Below, in pieces: positions 9,971 to 10,053 of a stretch of DNA of 64,000 nucleotides. The position numbers and the translations under genes were made by a program. Position 1 is the first letter of the stretch, and the number at the start of each line of letters is the position of its first letter. This stretch comes from a virus. Taxonomy: Duplodnaviria > Heunggongvirae > Uroviricota > Caudoviricetes. The stretch spans positions 4,857 to 68,856 of the IMG/VR virus record IMGVR_UViG_3300021254_000022; one strand, given 5' to 3'. Below the pieces are notes generated by a model. That model did not search any database. It worked only from the letters and a program-made list of their open reading frames with translations, and was not told the origin of the DNA.

Positions 9971-10053
9971 ATTCATACTTTAAGTATGTGCCGTGGGTTC
10001 GAATCCCATCATCCGCGCCAAAAATTGCGAATGTAGATCAGTTGGTAGATCAA
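9971..10053 (+). ncRNA. split or permuted tRNA-like halves: 3' half (anticodon arm with UUA, T-arm, acceptor 3' strand, G73, encoded CCA; 9971-10020) followed after 6 nt by a 5' half (acceptor 5' strand + U8A9 + canonical D-arm; 10027-10052)
   Basis: 3' strand catccgc pairs 6/7 with downstream gcgaatg; no matching 5' strand found upstream; 7-nt anticodon-loop reading CTTTAAG gives anticodon UUA. Confidence 0.3.

Follow-up and report, generated by a model that had tools for sequence, protein, structure and literature searches.

The DNA analysed here, referred to as the window, is a stretch of 64,000 nucleotides (nt) from a virus of the class Caudoviricetes (IMG/VR record IMGVR_UViG_3300021254_000022, positions 4,857 to 68,856). 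It covers a phage tRNA region with 34% G+C and Gram-positive-type lysins. The element at 9955–10069 on the plus strand of the window probably encodes a tRNA-mimicking RNA of about 115 nt, of the Y RNA/YrlA type, belonging to a DUF2828 Ro-like ribonucleoprotein. In this RNA, a terminal stem and a CAGCAA motif enclose a tRNA-like body in permuted order, and the presumed protein partner is encoded at 18997–20562 on the same strand. A sequence-only reading had drawn attention to positions 9971–10053, where the 3′ half of a tRNA precedes a 5′ half, and had offered two explanations, namely a circularly permuted or trans-joined tRNA with an ochre-type UUA anticodon, or rearranged pseudogene halves.

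Architecture of the RNA

All the tRNA-like parts described in the sequence-only reading (the hairpin, T-arm, acceptor 3′ strand, G73-CCA, spacer, acceptor pairing of 6/7, U8-A9, and D-arm) were confirmed at this locus. Three elements had been missed: the terminal stem (9956–9961 with 10063–10068), the CAGCAA motif (9965–9970), and the strand at 10053–10056, which pairs with GUAU at 9984–9987. The 5′ strand of the terminal or frame stem, GAGACAC(UUU), occupies 9955–9964, and its 3′ strand, (AAG)GUGUCUA, occupies 10060–10069; both were drawn by the minimum free energy (MFE) fold and are supported by covariation, and the pairing can be extended in the window copy to 9964/10060. The CAGCAA motif stands beside this stem and is followed by an upstream hairpin, CAUAC-UUUAA-GUAUG (9974–9988), which had been noted first as an anticodon arm. 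It can be drawn either with this 5-bp stem and 5-nt loop, an alternative the earlier reading had correctly allowed for, or with a 4-bp stem and the loop CUUUAAG. The segment 9983–9992 comprises the 3′ strand of an anticodon-stem-like helix (AGUAU, tRNA positions 39–43) and a 5-nt variable loop (GUGCC).

The T-arm, GUGGG-UUCGAAU-CCCAU, lies at 9993–10009 and runs into the acceptor 3′ strand CAUCCGC (10010–10016), G73 (10017), and CCA (10018–10020). A 6-nt spacer, AAAAUU (10021–10026), separates the CCA from the acceptor 5′ strand GCGAAUG (10027–10033), which pairs with the 3′ strand at 6 of 7 positions (mismatch C10013/A10030). The two strands form an acceptor-like 7-bp helix (10010–10033) closed by the 10-nt loop G73-CCA-AAAAUU (10017–10026). 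Downstream are U8-A9 (10034–10035), a perfect D-arm, GAUC-AGUUGGUA-GAUC (10036–10051), and a segment at 10052–10057 consisting of A26 and the 5′ strand of the anticodon-like helix, AUACA, of which AUAC (10053–10056) pairs with the GUAU mentioned above. The interior is a tRNA look-alike drawn inside out, and for this reason the tRNA halves appear permuted.

The MFE fold of 9940–10075 showed a 9-bp closing stem, AGACACUUU/AAGGUGUCU, around three arms. The 3′ strand of the upstream hairpin is also the strand that pairs with the five nucleotides after the D-arm, and thus the two conformers are mutually exclusive; their nearest-neighbour energies in the window copy were −29.7 kcal/mol for the hairpin form and −21.4 kcal/mol for the form with the tRNA-like anticodon helix. 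No colinear tRNA exists at the locus: ARAGORN called 18 ordinary tRNAs in the window and none at 9971–10053, and the Rfam tRNA model was likewise silent there. The sequence of the element was 100% identical across three independent assemblies and is therefore no assembly artefact. An exact search with a 37-mer of the element found it absent from IMG/VR. Separately, a 37-nt segment just 5′ of the element (9912–9948, plus strand; AAGGTTTCAAGTGCAA...AGAGCCTT) resembles a degenerate mini-frame, in which the terminal strands pair, GTGCAA replaces CAGCAA, and a D-loop-like AGCGGTAGAG lies inside.

Conservation and covariation of the RNA family

The relatives examined were 80 or more IMG/VR loci on contigs of mostly 100–200 kb, with DUF2828 proteins 57–77% identical. 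An nhmmer search with the window element gave near-full-length matches in many of these loci, all on the plus strand, which is the strand of the gene. The common frame has the consensus 5′ AAGRCNN-nnn-C(A/U)GCAA ... NNGYCUU 3′, and a scan with this pattern returned 410 frames on the plus strand versus 21 on the minus strand. With an exhaustive parser, the module consisting of a T-arm, a 7-bp acceptor hairpin, UA, and a D-arm was found in 49 unique sequences. No match was obtained in a megablast search of 9600–10500 against the phage collection. The contigs that carry the neighbouring protein of 125 aa matched the window at 100% identity and thus offered no variation to compare. In the locus with the closest Ro-like protein (L162, 91% identity), no type-A RNA, i.e., member of the family aligned below, was found in the 10 kb preceding the gene; the syntenic position falls outside this flank.

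An alignment of 28 diverse members (A2, made with MAFFT; mean column identity of 61%) was scored for five helices: the frame stem, anticodon-like helix, T, acceptor, and D. Paired cells amounted to 96.9%, compared with 68.5% in shuffled sequences and 35–44% when the partners were slid by 1–3 columns; as the sequences in A2 had been chosen by a scan demanding the T, acceptor, D, and frame pairings, the percentage overstates the pairing of these four. The anticodon-like helix (columns 37–41 with 110–114) had not been used in the selection; it was 92.9% paired, and all five of its pairs changed on both sides. The terminal stem (helix 1 of the family) was 99% paired with 4 of 7 pairs changed on both sides, the T-arm 100% paired with covariation in 4 of 5 pairs, the acceptor-like helix 94.9% paired with covariation in 7/7, and the D-arm 98.2% paired with covariation in 4/4. 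Overall, 24 of the 28 base pairs changed on both sides, all five helices were supported, and the covariation score was 0.784 versus 0.224 in shuffles. The CAGCAA motif (columns 11–16) was invariant or near-invariant in the alignment and was found in the frames of seven phage groups.

The G-U pairs, together with the strand bias, indicate that the constraint acts on a plus-strand RNA and not on DNA inverted repeats. A miniature inverted-repeat transposable element-like DNA element with terminal inverted repeats was rejected on the grounds that the stem covaries and that G-U pairs occur on one strand only. A covariance model built from the 28-sequence alignment (R1), of which the window element is a seed member, scored this element at 90 bits and gave 51 hits in 80 loci at E ≤ 1e-7, all on the plus strand and all upstream of the DUF2828 gene; tandem tRNAs reached at most about 38 bits with the same model. 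The RNA family and its fold are firmly supported by these results.

The permuted halves taken alone are moderately beyond chance, and conservation and covariation are decisive. At unique T-arm-to-D-arm junctions outside frames, mostly between tandem tRNAs, an acceptor complementarity of at least 6/7 was present in 13 of 308 (4%), with a peak at 2–3 of 7, whereas inside CAGCAA frames it was present in 31 of 35. These numbers bear on the proposal that the element is a functionless remnant of two adjacent tRNA genes, in which the 3′ portion of the first is followed by the 5′ portion of the second. The element does lie within a dense tRNA array, distant blastn matches of its sequence fell only on the junctions of unrelated tandem tRNAs in other phages, tandem tRNAs mimic the YrlA model (PMC4201824), and about 4% of tandem junctions reach 6/7 by chance. 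The proposal is nonetheless highly improbable, because the full 115-nt architecture, terminal stem and CAGCAA included, is conserved, with compensatory changes, in dozens of divergent phages as well as in phage families unrelated to them, the frames show a strand bias of 410 to 21, the element is identical in independent assemblies, and the homologues are not recent copies of one sequence, given their mean column identity. A chance juxtaposition of tRNA parts was also considered and rejected. The rearranged pseudogene halves of the sequence-only reading are refuted by the same data, as the permuted order is conserved with compensatory changes and is under selection.

Circularly permuted tRNA genes, which occur in Cyanidioschyzon merolae and some archaea, and two-piece transfer-messenger RNA (tmRNA) genes also encode the 3′ half with the T-arm and the acceptor 3′ strand first. 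The short linker between the acceptor ends would be removed by RNase P and 3′ processing. In permuted tRNA genes, a colinear functional tRNA with a conserved anticodon is made via a circular intermediate at a bulge-helix-bulge; tmRNA carries a tag reading frame. The window element, in contrast, has no bulge-helix-bulge, conserved anticodon, or tag frame. A true permuted tRNA gene would have its transcript ligated or circularised at the leader–trailer stem, for example by the phage RNA ligase (28589–30028), and opened at the acceptor ends to yield a UUA tRNA suppressing TAA. The order of the halves, G73-CCA, the short spacer, and the 6/7 acceptor helix are all compatible with such a gene, and a 7-nt loop, C-U-UUA-A-G, can be drawn for the hairpin. 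NCCA opens the acceptor loop in 19 of the 49 unique members (including the window copy), with loops of 5–12 nt, compared with about one expected by chance.

The homologues, however, make this explanation very unlikely. The acceptor loop lacks CCA in the remaining 30 of 49 members, where it is mostly 3–7 nt long, so that free N73-CCA ends or a cleavable linker are not a feature of all members. The upstream hairpin is present in 24 of the 28 aligned homologues and missing in four; its loop varies from 3 to 8 nt (mode 3–4), and in 23 of 28 it is stabler than the same segment with the upstream strand shuffled. A 7-nt loop with U33 and R37 can be forced in only 8 of 28, with the triplets UUA, AAA, UAA, ACA, and UAU; no 7-nt loop, and no anticodon triplet, is conserved among the 28 homologues, which speaks against the ochre anticodon of the sequence-only reading. 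The strand after the D-arm covaries with the 3′ strand of the hairpin, which fits an open anticodon helix of the YrlA type and not an intact hairpin. Leader and trailer form a simple covarying stem of 7 bp beside CAGCAA; RNAs that lack acceptor strands or D-arms, and could never become tRNAs, occur within the same frame; and no splicing endonuclease was found among the 30 open reading frames (ORFs) scanned against Pfam. As the earlier reading had pointed out, TAA is the commonest stop codon of the phage and ends 25 of its 45 long ORFs, so that a tRNA suppressing ochre codons would do harm and is implausible. On the Y-like reading, the RNA does not decode codons. Comparison of the locus in related phages thus upholds the circular permutation as a structural description, with its order conserved and compensatory changes in many phages, and does not support a decoding, ochre-reading tRNA joined by RNA ligase.

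A two-piece permuted tmRNA-like gene, with a CCA acceptor piece upstream of a piece starting with the acceptor 5′ strand, was suggested by the shared placement of the CCA-bearing 3′ part first and by a weak match to the tmRNA model at 9910–10010 (11.8 bits). It is effectively excluded by the anatomy of the element: a full D-arm is present, which tmRNAs lack, and the terminal stem ends only 18 nt after the D-arm, with the next tRNA beginning 7 nt further on, leaving no room for pseudoknots or a tag frame. ARAGORN, which is able to detect permuted tmRNAs, called none in the window.

Relation to YrlA and the Ro-like protein

YrlA (RF02553; Chen et al. 2014, PMC4201824; partner Rsr/Ro60) is a bacterial Y RNA whose interior mimics a tRNA with a T-arm, a closed acceptor-like stem-loop, and a D-arm inside a helix of the 5′ and 3′ regions, and tRNA-like Y RNAs are known partners of bacterial Ro60 (PMC4201824). 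The phage RNA has the same interior order after the variable region, and the same open anticodon-like helix leads to its stem. It also shares the paired ends beside a conserved purine-rich motif, a gene for a Ro60-fold protein on the same strand, often close by in relatives, and the presence of several Y-like RNAs per locus. The broader Y RNA architecture of a 5′/3′ terminal stem, a conserved motif beside the stem, and a variable distal module is present as well. In a permissive scan, the Rfam YrlA model matched 9964–10084 over its full length at 29.1 bits (E-values of 0.001 and 0.035 in scans of 2 and 64 kb, respectively), with the same helix order, and placed CAGCAA on its own conserved motif.

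The phage RNAs also differ from YrlA in several respects. The motif GNCGAA(N0–1)G near the 5′ end of YrlA, its proposed Rsr-binding site (PMC4201824), is replaced by CAGCAA. About 40% of the phage members encode CCA in the acceptor loop, the conserved upstream hairpin competes with the anticodon-like helix, and the frame also carries other tRNA fragments, or none. The phage RNAs are embedded in tRNA operons, and their presumed partner is a DUF2828/DUF7788 protein unrecognised by the Pfam TROVE model. YrlA lies within 4 kb of a Ro60 (TROVE) gene and on the same strand (PMC4201824); the window RNA is on the same strand as the Ro-like gene at a distance of 8.9 kb, and in relatives the nearest frame is often 0.1–4 kb away.

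The presumed partner is a 521-aa protein (18997–20562, plus strand) in which Pfam identified DUF2828 and DUF7788 and not TROVE. Its predicted structure contains a HEAT-repeat ring followed by a vWA domain, as in Ro60, and the link to Ro60 was made by fold comparison only. In a tblastn search, the DUF2828 protein was found in 705 phage records, covering Felixounavirus, Herelleviridae, Campylobacter and Staphylococcus phages, mycobacteriophage cluster L, Bacillus siphophages, and gut phages; large Bacillus siphophages (Tsamsa and Thrax) came closest, with about 40% identity, and the protein is annotated as a "Ro-like RNA binding protein" in mycobacteriophages. Among 42 loci with full 10-kb flanks, frames occurred upstream of the gene in 41 (149 frames) and downstream in two, with seven frames on the other strand. 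When loci were seeded by the 16-mer AAGACACATACAGCAA alone, without reference to the protein, the DUF2828 gene was found in 43 of 120, and in these loci 51 of 51 motif sites were on the strand of the gene, mostly 86–3300 nt upstream.

The arrangement recurs in phages unrelated to one another. Bacillus phage Thrax1 carries six frames between its tRNAs and the gene, and its type-A RNA, with a closed 7-bp acceptor hairpin, occupies an unannotated gap of the tRNA cluster (L081:17774–17892). In mycobacteriophage LeBron, three frames directly follow gp53 with no tRNA array nearby; its type-A RNA was not in the R1 seed and scored 55.6 bits, has the CAGCAA frame, and reached 39.8 bits with the Rfam YrlA model. 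In coliphage wV8, the tRNA cluster after gp47 includes four frames, among them a non-seed RNA with a CAGCAA frame beside the DUF2828 gene (R1, 40 bits). Three 60-nt frames, small stem-loops with ACAGCAA, stand right after the DUF2828 gene of Staphylococcus phage 6ec, with a single tRNA 1.4 kb further on, and Listeria and Campylobacter phages have two or three small ACAGCAA stem-loops right before the gene, between it and the last tRNA.

Further observations were made in two of these groups. In wV8 (L288), a framed RNA at 10362–10487 lies under the minus-strand hypothetical coding sequence gp048 (locus 10329–10586), which is probably a spurious call, and three "tRNA-OTHER" features or tRNA pseudogene calls in the cluster may be related RNAs. 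In Listeria phage vB_Liva_VAfA18 (L289), a match to ROOL RNA was found at 6487–7038 (89.8 bits; gathering score of 99.1), immediately ahead of the small CAGCAA stem-loops and some 1 kb upstream of the DUF2828 gene, with an RtcB-type ligase gene downstream.

Phage Ro60 proteins with Y-like RNAs are already known for the TROVE type (PMC4201824; PMC12135203). The phiLo protein has a recognisable TROVE domain, and the phiLo RNAs have a CGAA motif and were chosen by motif and position upstream of the gene; for the window protein, the pairing with the RNA is a proposal. A 2024 preprint (PhageMaP, PMC11482910) described Bas63 gp130, a Ro60-like coliphage protein that counters the Ppl defence system and adjoins tRNA genes, and its authors guessed that some of the neighbouring "tRNAs" were Y RNAs; no RNA was defined. 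The setting of a Ro60-like gene beside a tRNA stretch is the same as in the window, and wV8 has the same gene arrangement and a CAGCAA-framed RNA; this shared arrangement suggests that Bas63 gp130 may belong to the DUF2828 family.

Several points weigh against assigning the window RNA to a Ro-like ribonucleoprotein, in addition to the selection of the aligned sequences mentioned above. The match of 29 bits to the YrlA model is far under the gathering threshold of 69 bits, which was also not reached by Thrax1 (37.5) or LeBron, and it falls within the false-positive range of tandem tRNAs. The latter scored up to about 28 bits (27.7 for the tRNA-Ala/tRNA-Thr pair of Thrax1), and since they are known to imitate the YrlA model (PMC4201824), the Rfam match alone proves nothing. 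The GNCGAA hallmark is replaced, the distance to the Ro-like gene is outside the 4-kb limit applied to YrlA, and the upstream hairpin of the window copy is calculated to be about 8 kcal/mol more stable than the tRNA-like anticodon helix. The structural model of the 521-aa protein is of medium confidence (mean predicted local distance difference test score, pLDDT, of 65), and sequence searches of the PDB with this protein and with a 31-sequence profile found nothing relevant. The case for protein binding consists of gene linkage and analogy, and gene linkage is confounded with linkage to the tRNA cluster in most phages. The RNAs of LeBron and 6ec abut the gene without a tRNA array and thereby argue against this confound. 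Overall, the linkage data support the protein partnership well but do not prove it.

Genomic setting, possible function and significance

The RNA lies in a putative transcription unit at 9629–10184 (plus strand), whose promoter-like site (9629–9657) and terminator-like hairpin with a T-run (10150–10174) were assigned by consensus match only. ARAGORN placed tRNA-Leu at 9706–9782, tRNA-Pro at 9801–9876, and tRNA-Gln at 10076–10147, the last starting 7 nt downstream of the frame. About eight more RNAs framed by a terminal stem and C(A/U)GCAA were found in the window, most of them 7–15 nt upstream of a tRNA. Six are at 262–323, 769–828, 1778–1844, 3824–3897, 17841–17968, and 18053–18185, all on the plus strand. 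The RNA at 15209–15306 (plus strand) contains a Gly(UCC)-like anticodon hairpin and a T-arm without acceptor or D-arm, and the RNA at 16076–16190 (plus strand; partial Rfam tRNA match of 27.4 bits) contains a D-arm, a Tyr(GUA)-like anticodon arm, and a T-arm in the normal order, with the frame replacing the acceptor stem. Some framed RNAs in the window have no tRNA-like part at all.

In the 270 unique frames collected (loci L001–L167), 87 hold a hairpin of canonical form (stem of 5 bp, 7-nt loop Y-U-NNN-R-N), and the commonest anticodon-like triplets were GAU (11), UUU (10), GUA (8), and UCC (8). This census is suggestive, not conclusive, of mimicry of particular anticodon arms. A tRNA follows within 15 nt in 110 of the 270 frames (mode 5–10 nt), in keeping with RNase P freeing the 3′ end, and in 43 a tRNA lies at most 15 nt upstream. 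The same proximity, which is shared by most frames of the window, is what would be expected of a cis-acting leader or spacer of tRNA operons that guides transcription start or processing (RNase P, RNase III/E) and is unconnected to the Ro-like protein. As the Ro-like gene usually stands beside the tRNA cluster, its linkage to the frames could then be indirect. We consider such a leader unlikely, because LeBron and 6ec each have three frames adjoining the DUF2828 gene where no tRNA array is present, the frames of the Listeria and Campylobacter phages occupy the interval from the last tRNA to the gene, over half of all frames have no tRNA within 15 nt, and a covarying tRNA-like body is unneeded for a simple processing signal.

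On the favoured reading, the RNA would be co-transcribed with tRNA-Leu, tRNA-Pro, and tRNA-Gln, and RNase P cleavage at the 5′ end of tRNA-Gln would free its 3′ end. The Ro-like ring protein would bind the module of terminal stem and CAGCAA, much as Ro60/Rsr recognises the corresponding stem and GNCGAA in Y RNAs, and the tRNA-like module would be presented to tRNA-recognising factors. The RNA may assist RNA processing and repair, as an adaptor or scaffold, or may act as a decoy. In Mycobacterium smegmatis, the 7-bp acceptor stem of YrlA is cut by RNase P, and the RNA carries CCA in vivo (PMC4201824); on this model, RNase P may open the acceptor loop in the NCCA subclass, giving a two-piece mimic with a CCA end. 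An adaptor role would fit a run of genes with an RNA end-healing and repair flavour at 25003–32477, downstream of the Ro-like gene and on the plus strand: a Thg1-like enzyme (25003–25797), a metallophosphatase (26369–27175), an RNase T-like exonuclease (27762–28574), the RNA ligase mentioned above, and a Band-7/SPFH protein (31530–32477). The fit concerns the ligase, the Thg1-like and RNase T-like enzymes, and the phosphoesterases.

A broader interpretation is put forward more tentatively, and we hold it to be less probable than not. The terminal stem and (A)CAGCAA would mark the cognate RNAs of the whole DUF2828 family, and one protein-binding frame would serve as a cassette for varied tRNA parts; these would work as decoys or adaptors, either against host defences that target tRNA or in tRNA repair. 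The parts displayed would be the elbow and acceptor-CCA in the window RNA and Tyr-, Gly-, Ile-, and Lys-like anticodon arms in its sister RNAs, and RNase P would open the acceptor loop of the NCCA subclass, leaving a mimic in two pieces whose CCA end is free and possibly chargeable.

Two other features of the window were recorded. A colinear 90-nt tRNA with anticodon CUA is located at 15314–15403 (ARAGORN, "tRNA-Pyl"), and a long frame at 20858–23584 (plus strand) contains four in-frame TAG codons (21377, 22205, 22577, and 22895), ends with TAA, and is homologous to a single 996-aa lysin-like gene of L162; the pattern resembles TAG recoding, or amber suppression, in a lysis gene. At 8985–9068 (plus strand), the Rfam tRNA-Sec model matched a class II tRNA-like sequence of the Ser-UGA type, with a CUUGAAA loop (34.9 bits), which ARAGORN missed.

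The phage DUF2828 "Ro-like" proteins are far more widespread than bacterial Ro60. No family in Rfam 15 matches the CAGCAA-framed RNAs, their putative partners, and no paper describing them was found in the literature on DUF2828 and the "Ro-like RNA binding protein". An RNA family defined by a terminal stem and CAGCAA provides a testable ligand for these proteins. Recognition of such RNAs explains unannotated gaps and "tRNA-OTHER" calls in phage tRNA clusters and exposes spurious ORF calls laid over them, and permuted tRNA halves in phage tRNA arrays should not be taken for exotic suppressor tRNAs. The framed RNAs further suggest that phages display tRNA fragments on a common protein-binding handle.

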